From Candidatus Iainarchaeum sp. (GTDB lineage Archaea > Iainarchaeota > Iainarchaeia > Iainarchaeales > DTGL01): a stretch of 64,000 nt of DNA. Positions 10,250-32,292 of the stretch are shown one piece after another. The stretch is taken from contig JAVYME010000001.1 of NCBI GenBank assembly GCA_038736825.1, positions 76,933-140,932 on the forward strand, written 5' to 3'. The first letter of the stretch is position 1. Every line of letters begins with the position of its first letter. The notes under the pieces are model-generated. The model was not told the DNA's origin and made no database searches. It was given only the letters and a program-made list of their open reading frames with translations. The position numbers and the translations under genes were made by a program.

Positions 10250-12454
10250 ATGGTGGTTTCAATGGGAAGAAGAGAGGAAATGGTGAAACTGGCACAAGAC
10301 ATGATGGAAAACAAAGACAACATAAGAAACATAGGGATTGTGGCACACATAGACCACGGCAAAACCACCATGACAGACTCACTAATTGCAGCAGCCGGCT
10401 TGATGTCAGAAGAACTCGCAGGAAAACAATGCTTGATGGACTTCTATGAACTCGAACAACAGCGCGGCATAACAATCAATGCAGCAAACATTTCCGTAGT
10501 ATACAAACACGAAGACAAGCCCTACCTAATAAACGTGATAGACACTCCAGGACACGTGGACTTCGGCGGAGACGTAATAAGAGCGATGCGCGCAGTCGAC
10601 GGCGTAATAGTTTTAGTTGACGCAGTTGAAGGAGTAATGCCACAAACAGAAACCGTGATAAGGCAAGCCTTAAGGGAAAACTGCAAGCCGGTTTTATTCG
10701 TAAACAAAGTAGACAGGCTAATAAACGAATTAAAAGTAAGCGAAGACGAAATGCAAGACCGCTTGATAAAAGCAATTTCAAAAGTGAACACGCTCATAAA
10801 AAAGAACGCGCCAAAACAGTTTGCAGAAAAATGGATTGCAAAAGTTGAAGACGGTTCAGTAACCTTTGGCTCAGGGCTGTACAAGTGGGCAATCTCAGTG
10901 CCAAAAATGAAAGAAACCGGGGTTTCCTTTAAAGAAATATACAAATACTGCAAAGAAGGCAAAATGAAAGAACTCTCAGCAAAAATACCGCTATACAGGG
11001 CATTAATGGACATGATAATCAGACACCTGCCAAGCCCAGTTGAAGCACAAAAATACAGGATTCCAGAAATATGGAAAGGCGAAATAGAAAGCGAAACCGG
11101 AAAAGCAATGCTAAACTGTTCAAGCGAAGGCCCGCTTGCAATGATGGTAACCGACGTAGTGGTTGACCCGCACGCAGGAGAAATTGCAACAGGCAGAGTA
11201 TACTCTGGAAAAATCACTAGAGGAATGAAAGTATTCCTAATCAACTCCAAAAAAGAAGTCAACGTGCAAGCAGTCGGCGTTTACATGGGACCAGAAAGAG
11301 TCAACATGGAATTCATTCCAGCAGGCAATATTGCCGCAATTTCAGGCACAAAAGAGGTATATGCAGGCGAAACCATTGCCACAGAGCAAATCCAGCCATT
11401 TGAATCCTTTAAAAGCTCTGTCGAACCAGTAATGACTGTCAGCATAGAAGCAAAAAAAACCGCAGACCTGCCAAAACTCATAGAAGTACTAAAACAAGTC
11501 TCAAAAGAAGACCCAAACGTTGTAGCAACAATAAACCAAGAAACAGGCGAACACCTGGTAAGCGGAATGGGCGAACTCCACTTGGAAGTCACAAGGTACA
11601 GAATTGAAGTAGACCACAACGTGCCAATAGAAGTAAGCCAGCCAATTGTCGTATACAAAGAAACAACCCTCAAAAAATCGCCATCCTATTTTGGCAAAAG
11701 CCCAAACAAACACAACCAATTCAAAATAAGCGTTGAACCAATCAAGCCAGAAATCCTTGAAAAACTAATAGAATCAAAACTTGAAGGAAAAATAAGAAAA
11801 AAAGACATTGAAAAAATGGCAAAACTGGAAGAAATAGGCTTTTCAAAAGACGATGCAAAAAACACTTGGTGGGTTCACAACAACAATGTACTAATAGACT
11901 GGACAAAAGGAGTTCAAGCAATCCAAGAAATAAAAGAACTCGTATGCCAGGGATTCGTGGACGCAATGAACGAAGGCCCCCTAGCAAAAGAAAAATGCTA
12001 TGGCTTAATAGTAAGGCTGGAGGACGCAAAACTCCACGAAGACGCAATCCACCGCGGTCCAGCACAAGTATTGCCAGCAATCACTAGAACAATCTATGCA
12101 TGCATGTTAAGCGCAAACGCAGTATTGCTTGAACCAAGACAGAAAATGTTCCTTTCAGTGCCACAAGACTACATGGGGGCTGTCAGCAGGGAACTACAAC
12201 AACGCAGAGCCACAATCAACGAAATTCAAAGCGAAGGCGACCAAACCATAGTGATAGCAATCGCTCCAGTAAAAGAACTCATTGGCTTTAGTTCAGCCAT
12301 AAGGGGCGCAACACAAGGAAGAGCAATCTGGACAGCCGAATTCTATGACTATAAAGCGCTACCGGAATCACTGCAAAAAGAAGTAATAAAACAAGTGAGA
12401 ACAAGAAAAGGAATGGAACCAGAACCAAAACCAGCAGCCTTCTTCCTAGAATAA
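10250..12454 (+). CDS. fusA: translation elongation factor 2 (aEF-2)
   Basis: G-domain NIGIVAHIDHGKTT, DTPGHVDF and NKVD. Diphthamide-region AIHRGPAQ. 734 aa. Confidence 0.95.
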   Translation: MVVSMGRREEMVKLAQDMMENKDNIRNIGIVAHIDHGKTTMTDSLIAAAGLMSEELAGKQCLMDFYELEQQRGITINAANISVVYKHEDKPYLINVIDTPGHVDFGGDVIRAMRAVDGVIVLVDAVEGVMPQTETVIRQALRENCKPVLFVNKVDRLINELKVSEDEMQDRLIKAISKVNTLIKKNAPKQFAEKWIAKVEDGSVTFGSGLYKWAISVPKMKETGVSFKEIYKYCKEGKMKELSAKIPLYRALMDMIIRHLPSPVEAQKYRIPEIWKGEIESETGKAMLNCSSEGPLAMMVTDVVVDPHAGEIATGRVYSGKITRGMKVFLINSKKEVNVQAVGVYMGPERVNMEFIPAGNIAAISGTKEVYAGETIATEQIQPFESFKSSVEPVMTVSIEAKKTADLPKLIEVLKQVSKEDPNVVATINQETGEHLVSGMGELHLEVTRYRIEVDHNVPIEVSQPIVVYKETTLKKSPSYFGKSPNKHNQFKISVEPIKPEILEKLIESKLEGKIRKKDIEKMAKLEEIGFSKDDAKNTWWVHNNNVLIDWTKGVQAIQEIKELVCQGFVDAMNEGPLAKEKCYGLIVRLEDAKLHEDAIHRGPAQVLPAITRTIYACMLSANAVLLEPRQKMFLSVPQDYMGAVSRELQQRRATINEIQSEGDQTIVIAIAPVKELIGFSSAIRGATQGRAIWTAEFYDYKALPESLQKEVIKQVRTRKGMEPEPKPAAFFLE

Positions 12455-12599: not shown

Positions 12600-13871
12600 A
12601 TGGCTGAAAAGAATCACTTGAACCTGATCTTCATTGGCCATGTTGATCACGGTAAATCAACCACTGTTGGAAGGCTCTTGTATGACTCTGGCACGCTAAG
12701 CGAGCAAGAATACAGGAAGCTGGAAGCAGAAGCAGCAGCACAGGGAAAGGCAAGCTTTGCCTTTGCCTATGCAATGGACAGGCTGAAAGAAGAAAGAAAA
12801 AGAGGCCTGACAATAGACCTGGCATACAAAAAATTCAAGGCAAAAAAGAACGATTTCACAATAATTGACGCTCCAGGCCACAAAGACTTTGTAAAAAACA
12901 TGATTACCGGAACAAGCCAAGCGGATGCCGCAGTCCTAGTGATTTCGGCAAAAGAAGGCATCCAGCCGCAAACCAAAGAGCACGCCTTCCTCGCCCAAGT
13001 AATGGGCATAAAACAACTAGTAATAGCAGTCAACAAAATGGACGAAGTGAATTATGACAAGGGTCGCTTTGAACAAATGCAAAAAGAAATCCTGAAGTTC
13101 TTGACAGGCGTTGGAATAAAAGAAGACCAGCTCAAATTTGTGCCAATTTCCGCCTTTAAAGGAGACAACGTGGTAAAAGGCAAGGGCAAGCTGGACTGGT
13201 GGAATGGCCCAACACTCCTAGACGCACTAGACGAACTAAAAGCACCACCACTGCCAACAGATAAACCGCTCAGGCTGCCAATACAGGACGTATACAACAT
13301 TAAAGGCGTTGGCACAGTTCCAGTGGGAAGAGTTGAAACAGGAATAATGAAACCAGGCGACAAAATAGTGATAATGCCAGCAAACAAGACAGGCGAAGTA
13401 AAAACAATTGAAATGCACCACGAACAATTATCGCAAGCAGTTCCAGGAGACAACATTGGCTTCAACGTGAGAGGCTTGGGAAAAGAAGACGTGCAAAGAG
13501 GCGATGTTGCAGGACACACAAACAACCCGCCAACAGTCGCCGAAGAATTCATTGCACGAATTGTGGTCCTAAACCATCCAACCGCAATCCCAGTAAACTA
13601 CACTCCAGTATTCCACTTGCACACAGCACAGCTTTCCTGCCAGATAACCGAAATCCAGAAAAAACTTGACCCGAAAACAGGAGCAGTAGTTGAAGAAAAC
13701 CCCAAGTTCTTGAAAACAGGCGATGCGGCAATAGTAAAAGTAAAACCAACAAAACCAGTAGTAGTGGAAGAATACAAAAAATTCCCACAACTAGGCAGGT
13801 TTGCAATCAGGGACATGGGGCAAACCGTTGCAGCAGGAATGGTTGAAAGCGTTACACCAAAGAAAATGTAA
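12600..13871 (+). CDS. tuf: translation elongation factor 1-alpha (aEF-1A)
   Basis: [17 protein letters not shown] and NKMD motifs. 423 aa. Confidence 0.97.
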
Positions 13872-13924: not shown

Positions 13925-14233
13925 ATGCAAAAAGCACGCATCAAACTAGCAAGCCCAGACTACAAGCAATTAAACGAAGTAAGCGCAAAAATCGTTGAAG
14001 TCGCAAAACGCACTGGAATAAAGTTTTCAGGACCAGTTCCACTGCCAACAAGAAAACTGGTTGTCCCCACAAGAAAAAGCCCTGCTGGCGGGGGAACAGA
14101 AACCTACGAGCGATGGCAAATGCGCATCCACAAGCGCATAATAGACATAGAATCCGATGAAAGAACACTGCGCAAAGTAATGCACATAGAAATACCGGAA
14201 AAAGTGCACATAGAAATAGAACTAATAGAATAA
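13925..14233 (+). CDS. rps10: ribosomal protein S10 (S20e)
   Basis: ARIKLASPDYKQLNEVSAKIVEVAKRTGIKFSGPVPLPTRKL matches S10. Conserved position after tuf. Confidence 0.95.
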   Translation: MQKARIKLASPDYKQLNEVSAKIVEVAKRTGIKFSGPVPLPTRKLVVPTRKSPAGGGTETYERWQMRIHKRIIDIESDERTLRKVMHIEIPEKVHIEIELIE

Positions 14234-14246
14234 AGCTGTTTTTTAT

Positions 14247-15758
14247 TTGCGCAAAAAAGTTAAAAATTTCGCGCCTGCTTTGTCTGTGCAAGAAAGCATT
14301 TTTTTAGGTTTTGCAAAAGGAATTATTGCACGCATTGAAGAAAACCGCCAAGGCATTGCCTTTTGGATCGCACTTCTCTATTTTGTGTGCATTGTCAAGG
14401 CAATTTTTGGCTGGTTTGCAAGCCTGCTCACAACGTTTTCAAGGCCTGTTTTTTTCCTTGCCGGCTGGCCCTTGTTCTATTTCAACATATTTATTTCACT
14501 GGCACTAATTCTCTCTTTTTTCACTAAAGAAACAGTGGATAAAACCTCAAAAGCAGTTTTTGCCTTTTCTTTCATTGTAATCATTATTCCGATTGTTGAT
14601 TTCATTGCATATGGCCCTGAAGTGTGGCGCATCTTTCCAATGAGCATTGAAGAAATTGCTGCACAGTTTTTCTCTTTAGCTGGTCTTTTGCCTGGTTCTG
14701 TCCTGCACTTGGGGCAGGGCTTGACGTTTTGGTTAGCCCAAGCCCTGATTGCAGTGTATGTTTTCACCAAAAAAGGAAGTTGGCTGAAAGCATTGGGAGC
14801 AATGTTTTGCTTTTATGTAGCCTGTTTGGCATTATCCTCAGTCCCTTTCCTTGCATCCATCCTTTTTAGCCTTGGCAACACCTACAATTACACAGTAATA
14901 ATGCACGGGCTCGCGCTATATGCGCTCTCAGCATTTTTGCTTGCTGTAATCTGGCTCTTTATCTATGACCGCGCACTCCTAAAAAAAGTGGTTTTGGAAT
15001 GCAAGCCTGAACGAGCCGCACATTATCTTGCCCTTGTGCTAATGGGCTGGCTTTATGCACTAACGCTTTTCTCAATAGAAAAGCCCAATTTTTTGGGACT
15101 TTTTTTTGCGTCATTTTCAATTTTTTTGGCATTTGAAAGTGCTCTGGCGTGCAATAATCTATTTGACAAGGAATTGAAGGGTATCAAGGCAAGGCAATAC
15201 CGCGGGATTTGCCTTTCGCTGTTCACCCTTGCCCTTGTTTTGGCATATTTTGTAGGAGAAACAATTTTTGCATTAGTGCTTTCAACAATGCTCCTTGGAA
15301 TTGCCTACTCTGCAAAGCCAATTAGCCTAAAAAATCTCGGCTTTCTCAACAATGTGGTAATAGGCCTAATTTCAGCACTCGCATTCATTGTAGGCATTAT
15401 CACACAAAACCCAAAAATTCCCTTTAATGCAACGCTTGCAGTTTTTGCAACATTCTCACTTGCAGCCAACATAAAGGACCTTAAAGACTTTGAATCCGAT
15501 AAAAGGAAGGGCATTCAAACCCTGCCAGTGCTTTTGGGCAAAGAAAAAGGATTGAAAGTGATTGCTGTGCTTTCATCAGTTTCCTTTATTATTCCAGCAG
15601 CTTTTTTAGACTATCCTAATTTATTGCTTGCGGGCATAATTTTTGGCACTCTAAACTTTCTGGCACTAATGAAAACAAAAAAAGAAACTGCAACATTTGC
15701 ACTATACTTCGCTTATGCCTTGCTATTTGCGCTTTCACTGCTTTATCGAATCCCTTGA
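14247..15758 (+). CDS. polytopic membrane protein with C-terminal UbiA-family prenyltransferase-like domain fused to a ~290-aa N-terminal membrane domain
   Basis: The second UbiA Asp-rich motif is present (KDLKDFESDKRKGIQTLPVLLG = DxxDxxxD...TLPV). The first motif is degenerate (NNLFDKELKG). About 14 predicted TM helices. Confidence 0.55.
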   Translation: MRKKVKNFAPALSVQESIFLGFAKGIIARIEENRQGIAFWIALLYFVCIVKAIFGWFASLLTTFSRPVFFLAGWPLFYFNIFISLALILSFFTKETVDKTSKAVFAFSFIVIIIPIVDFIAYGPEVWRIFPMSIEEIAAQFFSLAGLLPGSVLHLGQGLTFWLAQALIAVYVFTKKGSWLKALGAMFCFYVACLALSSVPFLASILFSLGNTYNYTVIMHGLALYALSAFLLAVIWLFIYDRALLKKVVLECKPERAAHYLALVLMGWLYALTLFSIEKPNFLGLFFASFSIFLAFESALACNNLFDKELKGIKARQYRGICLSLFTLALVLAYFVGETIFALVLSTMLLGIAYSAKPISLKNLGFLNNVVIGLISALAFIVGIITQNPKIPFNATLAVFATFSLAANIKDLKDFESDKRKGIQTLPVLLGKEKGLKVIAVLSSVSFIIPAAFLDYPNLLLAGIIFGTLNFLALMKTKKETATFALYFAYALLFALSLLYRIP

Positions 15759-15762
15759 AAAT

Positions 15763-16335
15763 TCAGGTTGCATTCGCATAAACCTTTAACAAATTGCCAC
15801 CATCAGCGCAACCAGAAATGCATGCAACCTCAAAAACCAAAACGCCCTTTTCTTTTTTTTCTGCTTTTGCGCCACTCTTTTCAACAATATCGCCAAAATA
15901 GGGCAATATAACCAAATCCAAAACCGTTGTCTTAGCCGGTGCAACAACAAACTGCACTGCAGAATAATTGGTTCCATCAATTGCTGGAGAGGTAATCGCA
16001 AATGAAAAGGTTTTGCTCGACTTGTTGGATAAAACCAATCCCGTGGATTCCCCAATTGCAATCTCTGTCAAAGAAAAACCTTGTTCTGAAAGTGGCACCT
16101 CAATCATTGACACTTTGTCAAAAGAGAGAACCAATGGTTGTGATGGTTTGTAGTCAGGGTTTTCCTTCAAAAACTGGGAAACAAAATATGGTTTCAAAAC
16201 AATATGAGGATTAGGATCTGGAGGCGGTTCGGCGGAAGGCCGTCCACCCCAATTAAAAACAAAAACAAATAAAGCCAGCAATATTGCAAAAACAACTATT
16301 CCCAAAACAGCCAGCTTCAAATACTTTTTATCCAT
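15763..16335 (-). CDS. hypothetical N-terminally anchored secreted protein
   Basis: N-terminal TM/signal anchor (LAVLGIVVFAILLALFVFVF). No recognizable domain. Convergent with the upstream gene across a 4-nt gap. Confidence 0.45.
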   Translation of the reverse strand: MDKKYLKLAVLGIVVFAILLALFVFVFNWGGRPSAEPPPDPNPHIVLKPYFVSQFLKENPDYKPSQPLVLSFDKVSMIEVPLSEQGFSLTEIAIGESTGLVLSNKSSKTFSFAITSPAIDGTNYSAVQFVVAPAKTTVLDLVILPYFGDIVEKSGAKAEKKEKGVLVFEVACISGCADGGNLLKVYANAT

Positions 16336-16388: not shown

Positions 16389-17639
16389 TTGTGCATTACA
16401 TTGCATTGTTTTGACTCTTGTGAAGGTGAAAAATTGGAAAAATCTGGAAAAAAAGGAACTATCGTGTTTTTACTAATTACACTTTTAGTTGCACAAGTTT
16501 TTGCTGCAGATTGCCTGGATTGGATGGAATCACAATCTGGAAAAGAAGTGGGAGACAATATGAATGATGACGGCGTTTTAGGACCTGGGGAAACACTCGC
16601 AAATAATAAAACAAATAAGCCTGGAGAAATCGGAGTTAATAATGCAAGTACTGTTAAACAAATTGGCGAGAACTACATTAATGGCTCAACTGTGCCTGTA
16701 ACAATATCAAACGATAATGGCACAACAGTACAGACAGACCCAAACCTAAAATATGAACTCACTCCAATTTGGGGTTACAGCAAAGAGTACGGATTTTACG
16801 TTAGCGGTTGGAAAGTCAGTGCTGTGGAAGAGGAAACTGAAAAAGATCTGGATTTTGGTGAGGGTTGGACTCCAGTTAGTCCGACTCCAAAGCCTGTGAC
16901 CCCTACTCCAACTCCAACGATAACTCTAACGCCAACACCTACGCTAACCCCTCTCCCAAACCAAGCACCAACCGCAGACTTTGAAATGTATCCAGAGCCA
17001 GCAAATGGCATGGTTCCTTTGACTGTAAAGTTTAAAGATAAAAGTTTTGACCCAGACGGTTCCATTGTTTCATGGAATTGGGAGTTCGGGGTAGGTACAA
17101 TTGAAGGAACAAATTGTTGCACAAATAAGGAAACAAGCCATGTTTACACTTCAGCTGGCTATTATACTGTCCGGCTAACCGTAACAGACAACTTGGGGGC
17201 AACAGCATCTAATCAAAAATCTATAATTGCAATACAAAAAGCGGCAATAACAATTTTCAAATCAAACAATCCAGAAAACCCAAACCAGCCAGCACAAATT
17301 ATTATTGCATGCGGCAAGCAGGCAGCCCTCCAATTGGAATTCCTTGACAAGGACAGCCAGCCACTTTCCGGAGTTCCAACTCAACTAATGGATGGAGCTC
17401 ACGGCCTGCCATTTTGCAATATCACACCTACAATTCTCAACATAACTGGCTTTCCAAAACCAGGGCTTTATCAAATAAAGGCAAACATTCTTGGAGAGGA
17501 GTGCACTAATTGTCCAAAAACGATCCACATAGTTGTCGGTCAAGAAATGCCAGAACTCCAAACTCCAGAAATCCCAGCAATACTAACCGCAGTAATCGCA
17601 CTTGCAGTGATTGTCATCACAAACAGGAAAAAGAAATAA
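16389..17639 (+). CDS. secreted surface protein with Thr/Pro linker, PKD domain and conserved C-terminal sorting signal (PEIPAIL-TM-NRKKK)
   Basis: Signal peptide (alternative TTG start at 16434). TPTPKPVTPTPTPTITLTPTPTLTP linker. PKD-type domain (PTADFEMYP...GMVPLTVKF...WNWEFG). The C-terminal ~35 aa are almost identical to the 27182..29317 protein. Confidence 0.75.
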   Translation: MCITLHCFDSCEGEKLEKSGKKGTIVFLLITLLVAQVFAADCLDWMESQSGKEVGDNMNDDGVLGPGETLANNKTNKPGEIGVNNASTVKQIGENYINGSTVPVTISNDNGTTVQTDPNLKYELTPIWGYSKEYGFYVSGWKVSAVEEETEKDLDFGEGWTPVSPTPKPVTPTPTPTITLTPTPTLTPLPNQAPTADFEMYPEPANGMVPLTVKFKDKSFDPDGSIVSWNWEFGVGTIEGTNCCTNKETSHVYTSAGYYTVRLTVTDNLGATASNQKSIIAIQKAAITIFKSNNPENPNQPAQIIIACGKQAALQLEFLDKDSQPLSGVPTQLMDGAHGLPFCNITPTILNITGFPKPGLYQIKANILGEECTNCPKTIHIVVGQEMPELQTPEIPAILTAVIALAVIVITNRKKK

Positions 17640-17700: not shown

Positions 17701-19275
17701 CTATTTTTTTCCTTTTTTTTCTTGTGTTGATTTTTTTAACAATAGTTCTCTTTCTTGTTGTAGTTTGAGGAGTCTTTCCCTGTAAGCGCTTTCTGAAAGC
17801 CGTCTCTTGAAAAAATCCAGTTTTGCTTTTTTTTCAAGTTCTGAAATTTTTTCAAGGCGCCTTTCAATGGAGCGCTTTTCCAGTTGCTTGAGTTTTTTTC
17901 TCCAAAAAAATGCTGAAATTGAAAGAATTAAGGCTGTTATTCCGCCTCCAAAAACAATTATTTTGCCCCAATCTATGGGTTCAATTATTTCTGTTGAAAT
18001 CTTTGCTTTTCCTGAAAAAGGCGGTTTTAAAACAATTTCAATGGTGTGGGTTCCCTGTAAAGCAAATGGCAGGCTTGCAGAGCAAAAGCCTTTTTCAGTG
18101 CAGGAAAGAGTAATTGAGTGCTGTTTTTCGTCAATGTAAAGCAATGCTTCAACCTCATTGCTTGCAACTTGTTGTCCTTCCACTTGTACTTCTATTTTTG
18201 TAGCTCCGCCACGACTTTCAGTTCTGCCTTCCATTGGGAAAACGAACAAAACCTGGTTTTCAGTCGGGCTTGCCCCTTCTGGAGAAAGCATTTCAAGAGA
18301 AAAACTGTTTTTTTCAGTTTTTGTTCCAGAAGCGTTTTTGCCTGAAACAGTTATCTTCAATTCACTGTCTTTCTCGCTAACGGGGCGCGTGAATTCTGCA
18401 CTCCAGGCTCCTCCTGCAAAAGACAATTTTTTTCTTTCCAGTATTTTTTCTTTTGACAAAAGCCAAGCCTCAAAATCCCCGCTGTTGACAACAGTTTCTT
18501 TTTGGTGAAGAGAAAAGGAAATTTTTCCAACAGGCGAGCCAAAAAAATATTTCTGTTCTTCATTGAAGGGATTGCGGACTTGAATGGTTGCTGGCTTGAA
18601 GAAAAGCGGAATGAAAAAAGTTTTTTCCTTTGAGCCTGCAAGCGCTGCCTTCAATTCCAGTTTTTCAAATTCTTCAAAGGAAGCGTCTGGAACAAAAGAG
18701 CCTTCCAAAAAAAGGTTTTTGGAATCCCATTGCAAGGCAATGCTTTTGCCTTTTATTAAGGCACTAAAATGGGAAAAGGCTTCCTTTTCACTTGAACCCA
18801 AAAACCTTTGAATGTAGGAATTGTCTTTGTCCAAGAAAGCAATACGTATCTTTTTTTCAACTCCTGTTTCGATTGCAATATCCTGTCTTGCCTCTGAAGA
18901 GGGCGGCAAAAATGCTTTGAATTCAGTTCTCGTGATTCGCACTGGCACTGTTTTTTCCCCTAAAAGCATGCCGTTGTCCTTAAGCTTTATTTGTGCTTTT
19001 ACTTGAAAGGTTTTCGGGGAAAAATCTATTGCTTCAAGGTAATATGCATGGCTTGCAAAAGGGCTTTCGGTTGAAATTTCAGTGCCATCCCCAAAACTCC
19101 AAACAAAATCCAAAACGCTTTCAGGAAAATTTTCCAGCTTTAAATTGAAATCCACTGCTTGCGCTTCAAATGCCTCGCTAGTGCTCGCTGAAAGCCCGAA
19201 ATCAAGCGAGCTATGGGCAAATGGCAAAAGCAAGAAAAGAAAGGCTGCCAAAAAAAGGCTTTTTGCCATTTTCAC
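17701..19275 (-). CDS. type-I membrane surface protein (PKD-like repeats) with coiled-coil K/E/R-rich cytoplasmic tail
   Basis: N-terminal signal peptide, WSFGDGTE PKD-like motif and a C-terminal TM (ITALILSISAFFW). The tail LEKKAKLDFFKRRLSESAYRERLLKL is homologous to the tail of the upstream 1059-aa protein. Its stop overlaps the next gene's start by 4 nt. Confidence 0.7.
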   Translation of the reverse strand: MKMAKSLFLAAFLFLLLPFAHSSLDFGLSASTSEAFEAQAVDFNLKLENFPESVLDFVWSFGDGTEISTESPFASHAYYLEAIDFSPKTFQVKAQIKLKDNGMLLGEKTVPVRITRTEFKAFLPPSSEARQDIAIETGVEKKIRIAFLDKDNSYIQRFLGSSEKEAFSHFSALIKGKSIALQWDSKNLFLEGSFVPDASFEEFEKLELKAALAGSKEKTFFIPLFFKPATIQVRNPFNEEQKYFFGSPVGKISFSLHQKETVVNSGDFEAWLLSKEKILERKKLSFAGGAWSAEFTRPVSEKDSELKITVSGKNASGTKTEKNSFSLEMLSPEGASPTENQVLFVFPMEGRTESRGGATKIEVQVEGQQVASNEVEALLYIDEKQHSITLSCTEKGFCSASLPFALQGTHTIEIVLKPPFSGKAKISTEIIEPIDWGKIIVFGGGITALILSISAFFWRKKLKQLEKRSIERRLEKISELEKKAKLDFFKRRLSESAYRERLLKLQQERELLLKKSTQEKKGKK

Positions 19276-22200
19276 CTCTCCTTGTAAAGCCTTGCCAAAA
19301 CCATTTCAATTACTTTTTCACTATAGCCCTCGTTTCTAAGCCCTCTTGCCACCTCTTCTCTTGAAAACTCTCCGATTCTTCCGCAAAGTCTTGTTGTGAG
19401 CACTATGGCTTGAACTTTTTCAGGCGCTTTCTTGAAATCCTTTGAGGGAAAAACTGTTTTCCAAAAGCCTGTTTTAATCCAAAAACCGCTTTTTAATAGA
19501 GAATCAATGCATTTCAGTCCTTTGCTTAAAAGCCTTATTTGTTCGCCGAGCTCGCTTTCAGAAATATGCCTTTTGAAAAACTCAAACTTGTATTTTTTCT
19601 CCAGTCCAGTCAAGCGCTCTTTTTCCCTAAGCAAGAAAGCCCTTTCAGAAAAAACATTTCTTAAAAGCAATGCAAGGAAAACCAGGATTACAATGCAAGC
19701 AAAACCGAAAGCCAGCAAAGCAAGGCTTAAGCCTTGCTCAATGGTTGCAATAACTGTTCCTTCTCCAGAAAAATCTTCTTTTAAAACAAGCTTGAGTGAA
19801 TGCGTTCCAGCCAGCAAGGGCGAACTCAAAACCCCCTTGTGCAATTTTTCTTTTTCGTCAAACTTGAGTGAAACAGGCTGCAGGTTGCCGTCAACCAGCA
19901 AATCGCTGTTCAATGCAATGTTGGCAAACAAGTGGTTGTTGGGCTGGAAAAACCTAACACTTATCTCGCTTATTTTGCCATTCCAGGGCTTGTTCAAGCC
20001 AGCGCTGGGTTGAACAAAAACCATTTGCAGGTTGTTTGAAAGTGAAATTGTTAAAAACTCTAAATCCATCAATTCTTTGCCGTCAAGAGTGGCGTGTGCT
20101 TCAAGCCGGCAGCTCACGCTTTTTTTGCCAGAATCCTGCAATGGCAAAAGGATTTTCGCAGAATATTGCTGGCTTTCTTTATCAAAATCCATTTCCTCCA
20201 AAAAATCCAGTTCAGGGCATTCCACAATGATTTTTTTGTTTTTAACCTTGTAATTGTCTGAAAGAATTTTTGCCTTCAAGTTAACTGTTTGCCCGAAAGC
20301 ATACTCGCGCTCACTGTTCACTGGCTCCAATATTGAAATAACCAGTGCCGAGTTTTTTGCAAGCGGAACCGCTTGCACTTCATCAACCTTGTTGCCTGCA
20401 GCATCCCTGCCCTTCAATTTCAACTTTAAACCATGCAAAAAATCGGTTTCATTCACAGTATGGTCAAAATAAAGCGTGTAATCAAACTCGTTTTTTTCAA
20501 TTCTCACTTCTTCCTCTTTTTTGCCTGAAACAAGCACTGCCCTTAACTCGCTTGGAAAAACCACGATTATGCCGTTCAACAAAAACATTACTTTGGCTTT
20601 TTCAAGGGAATCAAGCAAAAAATATTTTTTGCCCTTGAAGACATTGGTTGCCTTGAAAAAAGAAGGCTCAAAAAACACTGGCGCTTTTGCATGGAACTCG
20701 CGCTTTTCCCCCTTAACCTCACTCAAAGCATGAATTTCCAAGAATTCAGTTTCAGAAAGCGAACTCCAAGGCTTAAAAATTCCCTCAAAAATTGTTCCAG
20801 AACAATGCATTTCAACCAGCGAGCCAGCAAGCAAAACCCTGAGCGAAATTCCTTGACAAGCAATCCTTTCATCGGCTTCATCCAAAAACTCCAAGCGCAC
20901 ATTCAAATCCCTTTGCTTTGAATTTGTCTGCACATGGGTTGGCTCCAAAACTCTTGCCTTAAACTTGGACTTTAAAACCTTAACCTTAACCTCTGCGCCT
21001 GCAGTCTGCCCTTTGGAATCACTAACGCGAACCTTCACCAAAAACTCTCGCTCTTTCTCCAAACCCAAAAAATAAGCGTGAAATGCCTCTCTCTGGCTTG
21101 CATTAGAGTCATCACCGAAATCCCAGAAAAATTCAAGCGACTCTTCATTCAAAGCATTAGTGATTGCAGTGAAATAAAAATATTGTCCTTCAAATTGCTG
21201 CCTGCTTTCAGGGTCAACCAGTACTGTCAAAACCTGCAATGGCTCGTCCTTTAAAGAAGTTTTAAAGGACAAAACAGGGCTTTCCCTTGAAAGGCTTTGC
21301 GTTGAAGAAACTGCCTTGAAAAAATAGTTTGTTTCCGGTTTCAATCCAAGCAAGTGGATTTTGTGGTGAATTGTTTTAGTGCCGTCAAAAACCCTTGAAC
21401 CCAAAGCACTGGTTTCACCGAACTCCACTGCAGAATCGGATTGCACTAAAGTGTTCCAGTAAACCTTTGCATGAGTGGCAAAAGCAAAAACCTGAACATT
21501 TTTTGGATCAATATCCTGCAATCCTGCTTTCAAAATGCAGCGGTTTTCTTGACTGCAATAAAAGCCTTCCTCGCACTTTGCAGTGCAATCAATTTTTTGC
21601 CCGCAATTATTGCTTTTAGAACCACACTCGCTCTCGGAACACGAAAGGGCTTTGCAGCATTTTCCATTAATGCAATTCCAGCCAGCACTGCAAGAGCACT
21701 GAATTGTGCCACCGCAATCATTTGAAAAAGAACCGCATTGTCCTGCAAAATCCCTTGAACACGACTTGCAGGATTGCAAGCATTTCCCGTTCAAGCAACC
21801 CCCCGAACAAAACTCGCTTTCAATCCTCGAGCAATCCGCATTAGAGTAAACCCTTGTAGAACCAGAACAAAACCATCCTTGAACACAAGGTTGAAGCAAA
21901 CCACTAGAAGCAGCACTAGAACCCTGTGGTTTGCACTCAGGACACAAAGAACTGCCATCACCTGATTGTGATAAATTTTGTCCTGGCATTTGATAAACAG
22001 CTGCAGGAGAGCCCTTAGCTTTTGATTGCAAATAATCATCATATGGGTCGCCCCCCTTAGACAAATCCTCATAAGAACCACCGGCAGGTGCCGCTCCATC
22101 ATCTTGTCCTAGCTCATTTACTCCTCCTGTAGCTCCTGTTTGACTCAAGCCATCATCATTTTGGACAAAAGTTGGAGTGGAAGCGCCATCAGCAGCCCCG

Positions 22201-22451
22201 CTAGGCAAACTTGGGCCAGGCGAGTTGTTAGTTGGGGGATTGAGTGCGTCGTCTGAAACAGGGCAATCTGGACAGTAGTATGCGCCTGTGCCTTCGGTTA
22301 CAGCAAAATATGCTGTTTTTTCTTTAGGCAAGGCTAATGAAAAGAAACCGGTTTTTTCGCTTAAAATGGTTTCATAAAACAGCCAGGTTATGGCTAGCAC
22401 TAAAACTATTGCCAACAAAAAGGCAGGCTTTTTTGAAAAAACTGAAGGCAT
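19272..22451 (-). CDS. giant type-I membrane surface protein: acidic G/D/S/P-rich region, Cys-rich EGF/laminin-like module, FN3/PKD-like repeats, TM and ~150-aa cytoplasmic tail
   Basis: 1059 aa with signal anchor and a run of CxxxxC repeats (CSGGCLNGKCLQSCKSC...CGQKIDCTAKCEEGFYC). WDFGDDSNA PKD-like and PETNYFFKAVS FN3-like motifs. C-terminal TM followed by LEKKYKFEFFKRHISESELGEQIRLL. Confidence 0.75.
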   Translation of the reverse strand: MPSVFSKKPAFLLAIVLVLAITWLFYETILSEKTGFFSLALPKEKTAYFAVTEGTGAYYCPDCPVSDDALNPPTNNSPGPSLPSGAADGASTPTFVQNDDGLSQTGATGGVNELGQDDGAAPAGGSYEDLSKGGDPYDDYLQSKAKGSPAAVYQMPGQNLSQSGDGSSLCPECKPQGSSAASSGLLQPCVQGWFCSGSTRVYSNADCSRIESEFCSGGCLNGKCLQSCKSCSRDFAGQCGSFSNDCGGTIQCSCSAGWNCINGKCCKALSCSESECGSKSNNCGQKIDCTAKCEEGFYCSQENRCILKAGLQDIDPKNVQVFAFATHAKVYWNTLVQSDSAVEFGETSALGSRVFDGTKTIHHKIHLLGLKPETNYFFKAVSSTQSLSRESPVLSFKTSLKDEPLQVLTVLVDPESRQQFEGQYFYFTAITNALNEESLEFFWDFGDDSNASQREAFHAYFLGLEKEREFLVKVRVSDSKGQTAGAEVKVKVLKSKFKARVLEPTHVQTNSKQRDLNVRLEFLDEADERIACQGISLRVLLAGSLVEMHCSGTIFEGIFKPWSSLSETEFLEIHALSEVKGEKREFHAKAPVFFEPSFFKATNVFKGKKYFLLDSLEKAKVMFLLNGIIVVFPSELRAVLVSGKKEEEVRIEKNEFDYTLYFDHTVNETDFLHGLKLKLKGRDAAGNKVDEVQAVPLAKNSALVISILEPVNSEREYAFGQTVNLKAKILSDNYKVKNKKIIVECPELDFLEEMDFDKESQQYSAKILLPLQDSGKKSVSCRLEAHATLDGKELMDLEFLTISLSNNLQMVFVQPSAGLNKPWNGKISEISVRFFQPNNHLFANIALNSDLLVDGNLQPVSLKFDEKEKLHKGVLSSPLLAGTHSLKLVLKEDFSGEGTVIATIEQGLSLALLAFGFACIVILVFLALLLRNVFSERAFLLREKERLTGLEKKYKFEFFKRHISESELGEQIRLLSKGLKCIDSLLKSGFWIKTGFWKTVFPSKDFKKAPEKVQAIVLTTRLCGRIGEFSREEVARGLRNEGYSEKVIEMVLARLYKER

Positions 22452-22654
22452 ACTATACTTAAGGTTTCTTTTTTATTAATCTTTTCCTTGCTCTTTCAGA
22501 AAGGTTTGAGAAAGCAAAACCATTAAAACACAAAAAAACAGCAAAACAATAAAAAGTTATGGCCAGGCAGTGCAATTAAAAACATTTTTAAAAACATACA
22601 ACATAACTATTTTTAATTAAATAATGAAATTTTTTGGCGTGGAGGGGTTTGAGA

Positions 22655-23926
22655 ATGCTTTTCGGTTTTCCTTTGAAATTCTTTGACCAAAAATTTAAAC
22701 CAGTTGCTTTTTTATCGGTTTTGGCTTTACTGGTTTTTTTTGCCTCGAATTCTTTTGCTCAACAAAGAGTGGAACTGGCAAATCCAGTGTGCTTTTATGA
22801 TGTCAATCAAATGCACGAATACTTTACTGACTTGCAGGGCAATAAAATTCCAAACCTGGACTTTATAAGGCTTTTTAGCGCTATTGAAGCAAAACCCCAA
22901 AACGACCCTTCAATAAAGGACGAAATAAAGCGCGCGCTCAGGGGACAATTTTATACTGGTTATTTGCAGCTCGCTTACACTATTGAAGGCGGAAAAAAGA
23001 ACCCTTTCAAGGGAGGCAATTATGCTAAATGCGATTTAGGTTGCTTTCCACAATTTACTTATTTTGGGAGAACCTATTACAACAAGTGCATTACAAGGAT
23101 TTGCACTGAGGGCAGAATGGTTGGCACTCCTCGTTTTTGTGATCCAAAAATCGGACCCGATATTTACATTCACTACCTGACTTTTTGGTGCGAAGATGTT
23201 CCACAGGCAACAATGATTTGCGGGCCGTCAGCTCATTGCGAGCAAAGAGCGGATGGCACTTTTTTGTGTGAATACAATAGCGCAACTTCTTCAAACCAAA
23301 GCAATGGCGTGGAATATGTTTTGGTTGCTCCAGCGGATTCAAGCTCTCAAATAATGGTTGCAGCATACCAGAACGGAAAGCTCATTGCAAGCAAGCCGAT
23401 TGGCACAACAGGCCCTGTTCATGCAAGCCAGGCTTATGCTTTTGCGCAAAGCACTGGATTGGCTTCGGTTGTGGCTTCAGCACTCCAGCAAAAAACAACA
23501 ACCACTGCTTCCAGTAAGCCTAGCACAACCTATTCTGCATCATACAATGGCAGCACAAACTATTCTTCAACTCCAATAAGAATGCAGGTTGTTGCTAGTG
23601 CCACAAAAGGCCTTTCAGCCTATAGAGCGCCAACTGCAACCTACAAAACATATTCAACCACAAGCACAGCCAGCACTGCAACATACGCTTACAGCACAAG
23701 CCAAACCAAAAGCACTTCTGCAAGCAGTTATTCTTCAAGCACAACTTATTCGCCAACAAAAACCACTTATAGCAATACGGTTTCACCTTATTCAACTTCA
23801 AATTACAGGATTCAAGCAACAACTTATAATCCGACAAGGACAGCATACTCTACAAACGCTTACACAAGCACTTACAGCACCACAACACAGGCTACGGCGA
23901 GTGTTTCAAAATACAGGCAAACCTGA
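22655..23926 (+). CDS. secreted protein with Cys-containing N-terminal domain and ~170-aa Ser/Thr/Tyr-rich low-complexity C-terminal region
   Basis: Signal peptide MLFGFPLKFFDQKFKPVAFLSVLALLVFFASNSFAQQ (the track begins at a TTG at 22634). The C-terminus is dominated by S, T, Y and A (TYSTTSTASTATYAYSTSQTKSTSASSYSSSTTYSPTKTTYS...). Confidence 0.6.
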   Translation: MLFGFPLKFFDQKFKPVAFLSVLALLVFFASNSFAQQRVELANPVCFYDVNQMHEYFTDLQGNKIPNLDFIRLFSAIEAKPQNDPSIKDEIKRALRGQFYTGYLQLAYTIEGGKKNPFKGGNYAKCDLGCFPQFTYFGRTYYNKCITRICTEGRMVGTPRFCDPKIGPDIYIHYLTFWCEDVPQATMICGPSAHCEQRADGTFLCEYNSATSSNQSNGVEYVLVAPADSSSQIMVAAYQNGKLIASKPIGTTGPVHASQAYAFAQSTGLASVVASALQQKTTTTASSKPSTTYSASYNGSTNYSSTPIRMQVVASATKGLSAYRAPTATYKTYSTTSTASTATYAYSTSQTKSTSASSYSSSTTYSPTKTTYSNTVSPYSTSNYRIQATTYNPTRTAYSTNAYTSTYSTTTQATASVSKYRQT

Positions 23927-23953
23927 AACCGCATGTATTTTTTCTTTTGACAA

Positions 23954-25285: not shown

Positions 25286-25457
25286 CGCTAACCTGTTTTA
25301 GCCTAGCAAATCCAGCATCCAATACCTTATCGTATACCAAAAACGGTTTTCGATTTAGAGAATTGATAAAAAAAGCCTGCAGGTTAAAGCCAAAGCAAAC
25401 CTGAAGCCAGCTATTGCTTTTTTCTCTTTTTCTTTTCTTTTCACTATAGTGAATTGA

Positions 25458-26317: not shown

Positions 26318-26379
26318 AGCAATTGCAGCAAAGCCGCGTGGTTTGACAATAATGTTTAAATAGTGGAAATGCGTAATAT

Positions 26380-29383: not shown

Positions 29384-30826
29384 ATGGCATTGTTAAAAAT
29401 AAGGGATTTTGTTTGGGAAATCCCGAAAGAGGGAAAAATGCGCGTTCCAGCAAGGCTTTACGTGGACCAAAAAATGATTCAAGAACTGGAACGCGAAGAG
29501 CAAACCAATTGGAGCACTTTAAGGCAGTTGAAAAACATTGCTTCCCTGCCTGGCATTCAAAGCCCTGCACTGGCTTTGGCTGACTGCCATCCAGGTTATG
29601 GCGCGCCAATTGGCAGTGTTGCCGCCATGGATTTAAAGGAAGGCGTTATTTCTTTTGGATGCATTGGGTTTGATGTGAATTGTGGAGTGCGCACTCTTGC
29701 AACCCTGTTAAAAAAAAGCGAAGTGGAGAAAAGGAAAAAAGAGCTTGCAGAAGAGCTTTTCAAAAACGTGCCAGCAGGGCTTGGCGTTACAGGAAAACTC
29801 AAATTAAGCCAAAGCGAAATTGACGAGGTTTTAGTGAAAGGCGCTGAATTTTCCCTTGCAAAAGGTTATGGTTTCAAAGAGGACTTGGAGTTCATTGAAA
29901 TGAATGGAAAAGCAAGGGACGCAAACCCGGAAAATGTTTCGCTCAAGGCAAAACAAAGACAGTTCAAGGAAGTCGGCACTCTTGGTTCAGGCAATCATTA
30001 CCTGGAAGTGCAATTCGTGGAAAAAATATTCGATGAAGAAATCGCACAAGCCTTTGGATTGTTTGAAGGGCAAATCGTTGCAAGCATTCACTGTGGAAGC
30101 AGGGCATTGGGCCACCAGATTGGCGCAGACTATCTGGTGGAACTGAAAAAAGCCTCAGAAAAATACAAATTGCATTTGGCAGACCCTGAACTGGTGTCAG
30201 CGCCAATTGAAAGCGAAGAGGGAAAAAAATATTTTTCCGCTGTGAGCGCTGGAATGAATTGCGCTTTTGCAAACAGGCAGGTTTTAGCACACCTTGCAAG
30301 GGAATCCTTTGCAAGGGTTTTTGGAGTGAATGAAAGGGAAATACGGACTTTTTACGAGGTTGGCCATAATACTGCAAAAATAGAAGAGCATGAAGTGGAA
30401 GGAAAGCAAAAGGAATTGCTTGTGCAAAGAAAAGGCTCTACAAGGGGTTTTGGCCCTGAAAGGAAAGAAGTGCCAGCACAGTATAGAAAGTTTGGACAGC
30501 CAGTACTGGTTGGCGGGACAATGGGCACTGCCAGCTATGTTTTGGCTGGAACAATAAAAGGAATGAAGGAAACCTTTGGTTCGGCAGTGCATGGTGCTGG
30601 AAGAAAACTTAGCCGGAATGCAGCAATCAAGTCTTTCAAGGGAGAACAAATTGCAACAGAATTGAACAAAAAGGGAATAATAATCAAAACGCATTCATGG
30701 AAAGGCATTTCAGAGGAAGCTCCTCAAGCTTACAAGGACATAGATGAAGTAATAGAAATAATGGCTGTCACAGGAATCAGCAGAAAAGTTGCAAGGCTCA
30801 AGCCAATGATAACAATAAAGGGATGA
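29384..30826 (+). CDS. rtcB: RNA-splicing ligase RtcB
   Basis: GSGNHYLEVQ..., HCGSRALGHQ and HNTAKIEEHE motifs. 480 aa. Confidence 0.93.
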   Translation: MALLKIRDFVWEIPKEGKMRVPARLYVDQKMIQELEREEQTNWSTLRQLKNIASLPGIQSPALALADCHPGYGAPIGSVAAMDLKEGVISFGCIGFDVNCGVRTLATLLKKSEVEKRKKELAEELFKNVPAGLGVTGKLKLSQSEIDEVLVKGAEFSLAKGYGFKEDLEFIEMNGKARDANPENVSLKAKQRQFKEVGTLGSGNHYLEVQFVEKIFDEEIAQAFGLFEGQIVASIHCGSRALGHQIGADYLVELKKASEKYKLHLADPELVSAPIESEEGKKYFSAVSAGMNCAFANRQVLAHLARESFARVFGVNEREIRTFYEVGHNTAKIEEHEVEGKQKELLVQRKGSTRGFGPERKEVPAQYRKFGQPVLVGGTMGTASYVLAGTIKGMKETFGSAVHGAGRKLSRNAAIKSFKGEQIATELNKKGIIIKTHSWKGISEEAPQAYKDIDEVIEIMAVTGISRKVARLKPMITIKG

Positions 30827-32292
30827 AAATGCAGTTAGAGGAAAAAAAAATCCTTTTTTTAACATTGTTCTTTTTCTTTATTTCTTTTGGTGTAAGGCTT
30901 TCATTAATGGAATTAAGGCCATTGCATCACGATGAGGGCGTGAATGGCTATTTTATAAGCAATATAGTGGAAGGACGCGGCTGGAAATATGATCCAGAAA
31001 ACTATCATGGACCGACATTTTTCTACATAACAGCGGTTTCTTTCCTTGCTTTCGGCGGAAATATTTTTGCGCTCAGGATTGTGCCAGTAATTTTTGGCTG
31101 CCTGCTGGTGCTAGTGCCATTCCTTCTCAGAAAAAGGCTCGGGTTTTGGGGTGTGCTAACAAGCACGTTTTTCCTCGCTTTCTCACCTGCACTCCTCTAT
31201 TATTCCATGGATGCAATTCACGAAATCCTCTTCACGTTTTTCATGACTGCATCGCTCGTGCTTTTCCTTGAATTTGCTTCAGAAAAAAAGCCATGGATGC
31301 TTTTCGGGGGAAGCGCTTGCCTTGCAATGTTTTTGGCTACAAAGGAAGCTGCCTTCATAATAGGCCCTTTTATAGTGATTCTTGCAATTTTCTTCAGTTT
31401 TGCAAAGGAAAAAAAAACAGAGAATAAATTGGAAGGCAAAAAAATTGCATTTTTAATTGAATTTTTAGTTGCAATTGCAATATTTTTTTCAATTTACATT
31501 CCTCTTTTCACTTCTTTTTTTCAGAACTGGAATGGGTTGGAGGATTCTGTTAAAACCCTTGGATTGTGGGGTCCAAGAGTGATTGTGGAAAAAGGTCATG
31601 ACAAGCCTTTCCCTTATTATTCTGGATTGCTGTTGTTCAGCGAGTTGCCGCTTCTAGTGGCAGGCATTGCGGGAATGCTTTTGGCGTTCTGGAAAAGGAA
31701 CGTTTATTTTTGCGTTATCGGCGTTTTTTTCATTGCAATGTTTTTAGGGGTTTCCGCTGTTCCCTACAAAACCCCTTGGATTGCAATAAACTTTTTGCCG
31801 CCTCTTGCGCTTCTCTCGGGATTTACAGCAAGAGAGTTTTTTGGCGTTAAAACTGGACTTTCAAGGCAAGCCGGCTTGCTGGTGCTAGGAGTGGTTTTTG
31901 CTCTTGTGTTATGGCAATCATATTATGTGAATGTTGTTGCTCCTGCAGCAGAGCGCTCTGAGGAAAATCCCTGGGTTTATGTGCAGACAACAATGAGTGC
32001 AAAGAAGGCATTTGAAAGGGCACTGGCAGCAGATGGAAAAATCCTCATTGCATTGGAGAATGAGAGCACTTGGCCCATGCCTTGGCTTTTAAGGGAAAAA
32101 AAAGTGGAATACCATGGAAGGGACTCTTTGGAGTCTGCTGAATTCTTGCATGGTTTTGAAGTGCTCATAGTGCACAGGAATCTGGGGGAAATTGTTGTAG
32201 GAAAGATTCCAGAATATGAGCGCTTTGGGTTTGATTTGCGTCCAGGAGTGCCTTTGGATGCATTTTTCGCGCAAAAAAAGCAAAATCCCTGA
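30823..32292 (+). CDS. GT-C fold glycosyltransferase-like polytopic membrane protein (PMT_2/ArnT/TIGR03663-like)
   Basis: N-terminal loop LRPLHHDEGVNGYFISNIVEGRGWKYDPENYHGPTFFY resembles the DE-containing first loop of GT39/GT83 enzymes. About 11 TM helices. 4-nt overlap with rtcB. Confidence 0.55.
   Translation: MKMQLEEKKILFLTLFFFFISFGVRLSLMELRPLHHDEGVNGYFISNIVEGRGWKYDPENYHGPTFFYITAVSFLAFGGNIFALRIVPVIFGCLLVLVPFLLRKRLGFWGVLTSTFFLAFSPALLYYSMDAIHEILFTFFMTASLVLFLEFASEKKPWMLFGGSACLAMFLATKEAAFIIGPFIVILAIFFSFAKEKKTENKLEGKKIAFLIEFLVAIAIFFSIYIPLFTSFFQNWNGLEDSVKTLGLWGPRVIVEKGHDKPFPYYSGLLLFSELPLLVAGIAGMLLAFWKRNVYFCVIGVFFIAMFLGVSAVPYKTPWIAINFLPPLALLSGFTAREFFGVKTGLSRQAGLLVLGVVFALVLWQSYYVNVVAPAAERSEENPWVYVQTTMSAKKAFERALAADGKILIALENESTWPMPWLLREKKVEYHGRDSLESAEFLHGFEVLIVHRNLGEIVVGKIPEYERFGFDLRPGVPLDAFFAQKKQNP

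Follow-up and report, generated by a model that had tools for sequence, protein, structure and literature searches.

We analysed a 64,000-nucleotide stretch of contig JAVYME010000001.1 from Candidatus Iainarchaeum sp. (hereafter the window), in which a two-domain membrane protein is encoded directly after the tuf–S10 cluster. The host is a DPANN archaeon, and the protein (hereafter the window protein) is a member of a derived clade inside a large, uncharacterised two-domain UbiA family, with a UbiA-fold half fused to a conserved six-helix domain. Current domain and structure libraries have no entry for this N-terminal domain, and the family-level finding outweighs the single degenerate motif described in an earlier note on the same DNA.

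The longest open reading frame (ORF) at this site in the ORF list runs from a TTG codon over 14247..15758 of the plus strand, the coordinates given in the earlier note, and encodes 503 amino acids; residue numbers throughout are counted from this TTG. The true start is probably the GTG codon at 14286, giving a gene of 14286..15758 (+) and 490 amino acids, since the NCBI model of this protein (P0001, titled 'MAG: UbiA family prenyltransferase [Candidatus Diapherotrites archaeon]', where MAG stands for metagenome-assembled genome) is 490 amino acids long and 100% identical, and homologues begin at residue 14 in sequence alignments. A full-length AlphaFold2 (AF2) model built from a 10-sequence alignment had a pLDDT of 83.7 and a pTM of 0.80.

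A two-domain UbiA family

The C-terminal half is UbiA-like, as previously noted. Pfam PF01040 matched residues 313–487 with an E value of 6.5e-19 (68.6 bits versus a gathering cutoff of 34.2), AfUbiA was the best PDB sequence match (4tq3, E = 1e-9) and, using Foldseek, the C-terminal ~280 residues superposed on AfUbiA (4tq3/4tq6), MjDGGGPS (7bpu), ApUbiA (4od5) and UBIAD1 (8djk) with a probability of 1.0 and TM(target) scores of 0.54–0.68. Alignment to characterised UbiA proteins, which the earlier note had proposed as a check on its assignment, found similarity to the UbiA fold, and the assignment stands. The domain sizes required correction. An N-terminal part of ~290 residues with ~7 transmembrane (TM) helices and a UbiA part of ~210 residues had been proposed, but the alignment to NCBIfam PRK12884 spans residues 255–449, and helices 254–274 and 282–307 of the AF2 model are TM1 and TM2 of the UbiA fold. 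Based on the NCBIfam start at residue 255, the confident AF2 model and the Foldseek superposition, the UbiA domain is complete, with nine TM helices over residues ~251–503 (~250 residues; 14997..15755, +) that include the junction residues R256 and H259. Because the two helices belong to UbiA, the N-terminal domain (N-domain) is left with ~235 residues (14–248; 14286..14990, +), comprising six TM helices and an amphipathic helix.

All NCBIfam matches of the UbiA half (ChlG, BchG, PRK12884, DGGGPS, HPT, MenA and others) fell far under their curated cutoffs, and the same pattern was found for 13 canonical relatives, with ChlG as the top match in all 13. By these profile scores, the UbiA half is in the ChlG/HPT/DGGGPS-like branch and outside every curated subfamily. 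ChlG/BchG (9sau; PRK07566, TIGR01476) provided the top NCBIfam match and the second-best PDB sequence match of the window protein, but at 60.3 versus a cutoff of 313 bits for PRK07566, 53.3 versus 212.3 for TIGR01476 and 30.5 versus 436 for TIGR02056; the family differs from these enzymes in its architecture and in its non-phototrophic hosts, which are DPANN, the candidate phyla radiation (CPR) and similar lineages. Models for digeranylgeranylglyceryl phosphate (DGGGP) synthase (DGGGPS) were missed by 7–12 times relative to their equivalog cutoffs (PRK12883, 51.1 versus 353 bits; PRK12882, 38.6 versus 296 bits; PRK12872.1-1, 22.6 versus 278 bits). Of the earlier suggestion of a DGGGPS-like enzyme with an accessory domain, the accessory domain is real and the UbiA fold lies in the ChlG/BchG, HPT and DGGGPS branch, but the protein fails the DGGGPS cutoffs.

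The N-domain is a separate membrane domain, in line with the earlier proposal, and is found across the family. It begins with an amphipathic helix (residues 14–31), followed by six TM helices (37–58, 67–93, 97–122, 155–176, 179–206 and 215–240) and a short helix (134–142) within a long outer loop. We found no relatives of the domain in Pfam or NCBIfam, and none by sequence in the PDB even at E ≤ 10. A cryptic duplicate of the UbiA fold was considered and rejected, with an hhalign probability of 0.7% for the N-terminal versus the C-terminal profile. The previous description of this region as lacking a recognisable signature holds for existing libraries, but the domain carries a strongly conserved signature of its own and shows the strongest constraint of any part of the family.

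This signature consists of 14 residues (E31, R51, E55, H73, Y78, P115, D118, G123, G156, E160, Y171, K175, Y190 and P200). The most invariant N-domain motif is P115-x-x-D118 (14589..14600, +), in which both the Pro and the Asp were present in 158/159 sequences, and high counts were also obtained for G156 (158/159), Y190 (157/159), Y171 (156/159), E31 (154/158), K175 (147/159) and P200 (144/156). Outside the window protein's clade (n = 112), R51 was conserved in 99%, E55 in 97%, H73 in 88% and E160 in 89% of members. The window protein keeps ten of the 14 residues, the exceptions being R51K, E55G, H73G and E160T; E55G is also found in its two closest relatives and in P0014, and the Glu at position 160 (Thr here; 14724..14726, +) is lost throughout the clade. 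Under the positive-inside rule and the known cytoplasmic location of the UbiA N terminus and Asp motifs, the N-domain would have an N-in/C-in topology. P115-x-x-D118 would then lie at the outer end of TM3, R51, E55, H73, D118 and E160 would cluster in the outer-leaflet half, and E31, E95, K175, R253 and R256 would be on the cytoplasmic side, as is the UbiA active site.

Using an exhaustive HMMER search, the N-domain profile matched 1263 cluster representatives (clusters at 50% identity) with E ≤ 1e-3, of which 911 reached E ≤ 1e-10. Most matches were ~500 amino acids long and, given this length, presumably have the same two-domain architecture. Alignments extended through both domains for 127 of the 159 family proteins examined, the shorter ones being fragment-like, and 93 of 127 two-domain sequences among the top matches contained the canonical NxxxDxxxD and DxxDxxxD motifs. 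The window protein fits both domain profiles (N, 5e-51; C, 1e-68), although its N-domain match is a self-match by construction, as it is itself in the seed alignment, and independent evidence comes from the 1263 representatives. It retains nearly all UbiA signature residues and has the family's layout of a directly fused C-terminal UbiA domain and a total of ~500 residues. When GTDB species genomes were scanned with a subfamily alignment, 98 relatives were confirmed. Family hosts include DPANN archaea (Iainarchaeum, Woese-, Nano-, Aenigm-, Pace- and Micrarchaeia), Patescibacteria, Omnitrophota, Thermoplasmata, Bdellovibrionales and others, and all 80 genome loci listed were from MAGs or uncultured isolates. 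A profile search of a word-indexed database with 105 sequences returned just 12 close proteins and was uninformative on the wider family. Literature searches, which covered work on DPANN/CPR UbiA proteins, Lipocone and AliA/AliB, revealed no description of an N-domain plus UbiA architecture and no characterised family member; public annotations read 'UbiA family prenyltransferase' or '4-hydroxybenzoate polyprenyltransferase'.

Within the family, six members (P0087, P0119, P0109, P0140, P0148 and P0114) have independently and thoroughly decayed UbiA motifs and retain the full 14-residue N-domain signature, which argues that N-domain function does not always depend on UbiA catalysis. Some members are ~800 amino acids long with a C-terminal TPR tail, which in P0009 is predicted to be extracytoplasmic after 15 TM helices; P0015, P0017, P0018 and P0025 (~800–850 amino acids) are presumably TPR-tailed as well. 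One protein, P0138, is 1251 amino acids long and has a long N-terminal extension, with its N-domain at residues 483–706. Tandem family paralogues occur in some Omnitrophota and other genomes (three copies at L017, two each at L075 and L048).

Catalytic motifs and cap loop of the Diapherotrites clade

The first Asp-rich motif of the window protein reads NNLFDKELKG (N303-N-L-F-D307-K-E-L-K311; 15153..15182, +), as translated before, and departs from the N(D)xxDxxxD pattern of loop 2–3. In an alignment to N68, D72 and D76 of AfUbiA, N303 and D307 are kept and the third Asp is replaced by K311. No shifted Asp-rich motif was found anywhere in the motif-1 region of the alignments, and the degeneracy thus survives the objection that the earlier note had raised against itself. 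The same note counted two of three Mg-coordinating aspartates as lost. The third Asp is indeed absent, but the count is overstated: the equivalents of all four direct ligands are present, and position 2 is Asn rather than Asp in 84/143 family members. In AfUbiA, position 2 is Ala, the direct Mg2+ ligands are N68, D72, D198 and D202, and D76, to which the missing Asp corresponds, is described as too distant for direct Mg2+ binding (PMC4106721). Asp occupies the third position in 111/141 sequences of the whole family sample and in 91% of the 112 members that lie outside the clade; among canonical members of alignment A3, the figure is 89/90.

A bigger change, overlooked by the earlier note, lies next to this motif. 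The clade has a deletion of 11–12 residues that directly follows motif 1 in protein order and shortens the L2–3 'cap' loop (15168..15200, +), as seen in alignments, loop-length counts and the AF2 model. The distance from the motif-1 Asn to a conserved Tyr is 11–16 residues in the clade versus 27 in 84/90 canonical members. The deletion takes out the conserved I-S-N-x-x-R-P-L segment (R in 78/90, P in 74/90 and L in 72/90 canonical members), whose counterparts are NDFYDRDIDAINEPYRPIPSG in ChlG and NDIFDIEIDRINKPSRPLPSG in MjDGGGPS; together with motif 1, it forms an extended N[ND]xxDxxIDxISNxxRPL motif that canonical members have in common with both enzymes. In the AF2 model, residues 308–312 alone connect helices 282–307 (TM2) and 313–336 (TM3), so the usual L2–3 cap element is missing.

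The remaining catalytic motifs are largely preserved. The L4–5 motif reads YSAKPISLKN (15306..15335, +) against a family consensus of YSxPPxRLKR, with Y354, S355 and K362 kept and P357K, R360S and R363N found in the window protein only; Y354 and K362 align with Y139 and K146 of AfUbiA and are invariant in the clade. The second Asp-rich motif is intact, as previously noted (KDLKDFESDKRKGIQTLPVLLG; 15474..15539, +), and follows the DxxDxxxD pattern, with D411, D414 and D418 kept in every clade member and in at least 92% of the family. The HMMER alignment to AfUbiA pairs N68 with N303, D72 with D307, D76 with K311, K146 with K362, D198 with D414 and D202 with D418, such that all equivalents of the direct Mg2+/diphosphate ligands (N303, D307, K362, D414 and D418) are kept. 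These are invariant in all 12–15 clade members at an overall identity of only 32–56%, and Y354, S355, D411, K413 and T425 are clade-invariant too. In AfUbiA, N68, D72, K146, D198 and D202 were shown to be required for Mg2+-dependent binding of geranyl diphosphate; R22 is likewise needed for binding, and Y139 for function (PMC4106721).

Comparison with solved structures places these changes in context. AfUbiA (4tq3–4tq6), the best PDB match by both sequence and structure, has the same nine-helix UbiA fold, and the equivalents of its N68, D72, Y139, K146, D198 and D202 are all found in the window protein; motif-1 position 2 is not Asp in either. AfUbiA is a single domain of ~300 residues with D76 and a long L2–3 loop, whereas the window protein adds the 235-residue N-domain and has a 5-residue L2–3 turn. 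MjDGGGPS (6m31/7bpu; PRK12883/PRK12882) also has the same fold, and DGGGPS and canonical family members have in common both NDxxDxEIDxINxPxRPLxxG and a 'KDxxDxEGDKxxG' second motif. The DGGGPS pattern of DxxxD followed by INxPxRPLPSG is not found in the window protein, in which the second Asp of this pattern (the equivalent of D70 in MjDGGGPS) and the I-N-x-P-x-R-P-L segment are both absent, as they are in its clade. DGGGPS, in turn, lacks the extra N-domain, and the family is widespread in Bacteria.

Sequences in which K, P, T, I, G or E stands in place of the third Asp group as one clade in a neighbour-joining tree, and this clade includes the window protein and its Diapherotrites relatives. 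On this tree and the alignments, motif-1 degeneracy is a derived trait of a single clade, alongside the cap-loop deletion. Positions conserved in at least 75% of 112 canonical members but lost in the clade are D311, E160, R253, G152, G417, S368, F44 and F194. Compared with the rest of the family, the clade is missing D311, E160, R253 and the cap loop, and the window protein additionally lacks E55, H73, P357, R360 and R363 and carries R51K.

Losses of E160, in TM4 of the N-domain, and of D311, in motif 1 (codon at 15177–15179), tend to coincide across the two domains: 17 sequences lack both, ten lack E160 only, eight lack D311 only and 92 lack neither (raw Fisher p = 8e-9). Because 15 of the 17 double losses belong to one clade and are not phylogenetically independent, coupling between the two positions is suggestive only. 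Outside the window protein's clade, P0065 has independently lost both residues and has a shortened loop as well, and the sister sequences P0028, P0029 and P0033 have lost E160 alone.

Genomic neighbourhood

The gene is located directly after the tuf–S10 cluster, in agreement with the earlier note, with EF-2 (10250–12454) and EF-1alpha (12600–13871) upstream and ribosomal protein S10 (13925..14233, +) immediately upstream, serving as the syntenic anchor of the clade. At least four divergent genomes carry it at full length and with conserved synteny. The upstream order in the clade is rpoB, rpoA, L30e, NusA, S12, S7, EF-2, EF-1alpha and S10, and beyond the UbiA-like gene come a convergent small membrane-anchored ORF, a PKD surface protein and then RtcB, a PMT_2-type GT-C glycosyltransferase and L3/L4. 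In the window, the convergent ORF (15763..16335, −; 190 amino acids with an N-terminal membrane anchor) has no Pfam match, adjoins the gene in all clade loci examined and is conserved at 27–39% identity in L001, L002, L003 and L008 using tblastn; the genes called for it in L001–L003 overlap the UbiA-like stop codon by 4 bp. It is followed by the PKD-domain surface protein (16389..17639, +; Pfam PKD), which is conserved downstream in the clade. RtcB (29384–30826) precedes the PMT/PMT_2-type GT-C glycosyltransferase (30823..32292, +; Pfam), a gene found 2.6–4 kb downstream of the UbiA-like gene in the related loci L002 and L008. Relative to these two loci, the window has an insertion of ~11.6 kb (17701–29317), a block of large surface-protein genes, between the PKD gene and RtcB/PMT, which contains an ORF of 524 amino acids and one of 1059 amino acids on the minus strand (PKD and purple-acid-phosphatase-N domains), a 430-amino-acid ORF without matches, a 727-amino-acid VWA and PKD protein and a DUF4143/AAA_14 ATPase (23954–25285, −).

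Because the clade's slot lies between two ribosomal operons, this neighbourhood may owe its conservation to core gene order rather than to function. Canonical members elsewhere do not occupy this slot. At L060 (8001–16413) from Candidatus Moraniibacteriota (CPR), a canonical family gene lies ~2.6–7 kb upstream of the bacterial fusA, tuf and rpsJ (S10) genes; its loose resemblance to the EF-1alpha/S10 position of the archaeal clade is probably a coincidence. Within the 64-kb window, we found no second UbiA or N-domain gene, and a Pfam scan of 20 non-ribosomal window ORFs gave no lipid or isoprenoid matches. A scan for bacterial-type promoters and terminators near the gene, with bacterial models unsuited to an archaeon, gave no more than the shuffled expectation.

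Across 80 canonical loci there was no broadly conserved neighbour, with the best neighbour cluster present in nine. These nine loci encode one or two polytopic membrane proteins of ~250 amino acids downstream on the same strand, mostly 5–80 bp away (L012:9522–10556, L016:9514–11898, L023:9602–11175, L028:3579–5086 and L064:5883–8262; also L034, L047, L084 and L087). The proteins have no Pfam match but align with the N-domain (hhalign probability 63.5%, E = 7e-5) with RNxLE, PxxD and YxxxK in register, and are probably stand-alone N-domain paralogues. In three loci, a clear Pfam LGT gene encoding prolipoprotein diacylglyceryl transferase (E = 9e-44; L012:7013–7822, −; L016:7019–7804, −; L059:7184–7990, +) sits beside the family gene, just upstream. 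One of these cases is on a contig labelled Nanoarchaeota. According to a 2025 paper, no archaeal Lgt homologues were known (PMC12462473), and the Nanoarchaeota-labelled gene could stem from horizontal transfer or from a binning error, or could be a genuine archaeal Lgt.

Proposed function and its alternatives

Members of the UbiA superfamily synthesise archaeal lipids, quinones, haems, chlorophylls and precursors of the cell wall, and new branches usually represent new membrane chemistry. We tentatively favour a reading in which the window protein is a working integral-membrane UbiA-type transferase with a Mg2+-bound diphosphate, a trimmed cap and an N-domain that handles the lipid acceptor or product. 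The UbiA half would bind Mg2+-diphosphate, most likely of an isoprenoid, at the cytoplasmic face via N303, D307, K362, D414 and D418. Because the third Asp, the L2–3 cap loop with its Arg-Pro-Leu and R253 were lost in the clade, the active site is expected to be more open, with donor or acceptor specificity or kinetics shifted from the ancestral state. A short helix joins the N-domain to UbiA TM1, and the N-domain should therefore sit next to the lateral lipid portal. The N-domain carries a conserved polar cluster (R51, E55, H73, D118 and E160) that is predicted to lie in the outer-leaflet half, and it probably binds, positions or relays the lipid acceptor or product. Four of these five polar residues are changed in the window protein (K51, G55, G73 and T160), and this module appears to be modified there too. 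The TPR tails of some relatives, predicted to be extracytoplasmic after 15 TM helices, fit a function on both membrane faces.

Selection on the protein looks normal. The N-domain has ~34% identity where the UbiA half has 40–50%, in the clade and the canonical family alike, and with the same ratio of domain conservation in both we saw no sign of pseudogenisation or relaxed constraint. Since all direct metal and diphosphate ligands are kept as well, 'altered' describes the UbiA site better than 'dead', and by residue conservation the site is probably not dead. The earlier notion of a catalytically altered paralogue is partly borne out: the Asp and cap loop are lost in this clade, the direct ligands are retained, and the protein belongs to a large family rather than being an isolated oddity.

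Several observations weigh against a working enzyme of this kind. The third Asp is kept in 89/90 canonical members, and mutations in motif 1 (including D70A) and motif 3 of MjDGGGPS impaired binding of geranylgeranylglyceryl phosphate (review PMC9385802). The analogue of the deleted Arg (78/90 canonical members), Arg147 of COQ2, lies beside the donor diphosphate in models (PMC11047366). The L4–5 basic motif of the window protein has, moreover, lost R360 and R363. Neither the window ORFs nor the 80 canonical loci revealed a linked substrate, operon partner or isoprenoid gene, and where the N-domain sits with respect to the portal is inferred. Finally, other members with dead UbiA motifs keep the N-domain, which implies that the family can function without UbiA catalysis.

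This last point leads to a possible but doubtful alternative, namely that the clade is made up of pseudoenzymes in which the UbiA half is a lipid-binding scaffold for the N-domain or for partners, and it is the N-domain that provides the family's real activity. This would be consistent with what the clade has lost (the third Asp, the RPL cap loop and R253) and with the further absence of R360 and R363 from the window protein, as well as with the six members with degenerate UbiA motifs and an intact N-domain signature and the probable stand-alone N-domain paralogues that adjoin family genes. A dead site, however, would not be expected to keep N303, D307, Y354, S355, K362, D411, K413, D414, D418 and T425 clade-invariant at 32–56% identity, and the same residues drift in members that are truly degenerate. 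The idea that the N-domain does the work also fits the window protein poorly because its own N-domain is the part most altered in polar signature (K51, G55, G73 and T160). A separate and unlikely reading gives both halves a task: the N-domain would be an unrecognised intramembrane catalytic or lipid-translocating module with an outer-leaflet polar site, coupled to the cytoplasm-facing UbiA half in a two-faced machine that makes an isoprenoid-modified lipid and passes it across the membrane or onward, and the Diapherotrites clade would have been rewired at both sites. Such a machine would fit the stand-alone N-like paralogues, the occasional adjacency to Lgt, the dead-UbiA members that keep the N-domain and the extracytoplasmic TPR tails.

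Two more specific chemistries were considered. It is improbable that the protein acts like decaprenylphosphoryl-phosphoribose (DPPR) synthase Rv3806c, using a non-prenyl diphosphate donor or a polyprenyl-phosphate acceptor to supply a lipid-linked sugar or phosphate to the nearby GT-C enzyme for decoration of PKD proteins. The PMT/PMT_2 GT-C gene and PKD surface proteins are conserved nearby in the clade, polyprenyl phosphates are the sole isoprenoid pool common to the family's bacterial and archaeal hosts, and an opened cap might fit a bulkier soluble donor. Structural likeness to Rv3806c was nevertheless weak, with 8j8k at rank 33 (E = 0.19) and thus no closer than prenyltransferases, and NCBIfam matches at E ≤ 1 included no phosphoribosyltransferase model. 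The position between two ribosomal operons may be core gene order, and the wider family lacks such neighbours. A role as the host's DGGGP synthase, in a fused divergent form that makes the second ether bond of archaeol, is very improbable. DGGGPS models do rank high among the NCBIfam and PDB matches, and a check for another DGGGP synthase, proposed earlier and run on the 64-kb window only, found no second UbiA gene there; most archaea need DGGGPS, although some DPANN bins are without one (PMC6431249). Against these points stand the scores far below the DGGGPS cutoffs, with ChlG scoring equally well or better, and the absence of the third motif-1 Asp and the INxPxRPLPSG loop. The presence of the family in both Bacteria (including Patescibacteria, Omnitrophota and Bdellovibrionales) and Archaea further disfavours this role, and the view of the genome comprised ~40% of one contig.

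For annotation, these results mean that reconstructions of lipid pathways in Diapherotrites should not treat the gene as a DGGGP synthase. The clade is also a natural experiment, in which the cap loop and third Asp are gone and every direct metal ligand is kept, and it bears on what is essential in the UbiA active site. More broadly, the analysis brings to light a large family, with at least 1263 clusters at 50% identity, in which the defining half has no Pfam or NCBIfam entry and no solved structural relative. Many of the 80 recovered loci are from DPANN, Patescibacteria and Omnitrophota, many of which are thought to be host-dependent for lipids. If true, the two-faced arrangement would point to envelope or lipid remodelling, or to surface-protein lipidation, in these ultra-small lineages and, if the enrichment in these groups holds, the family is a candidate for envelope and lipid handling in symbiotic nano-organisms.

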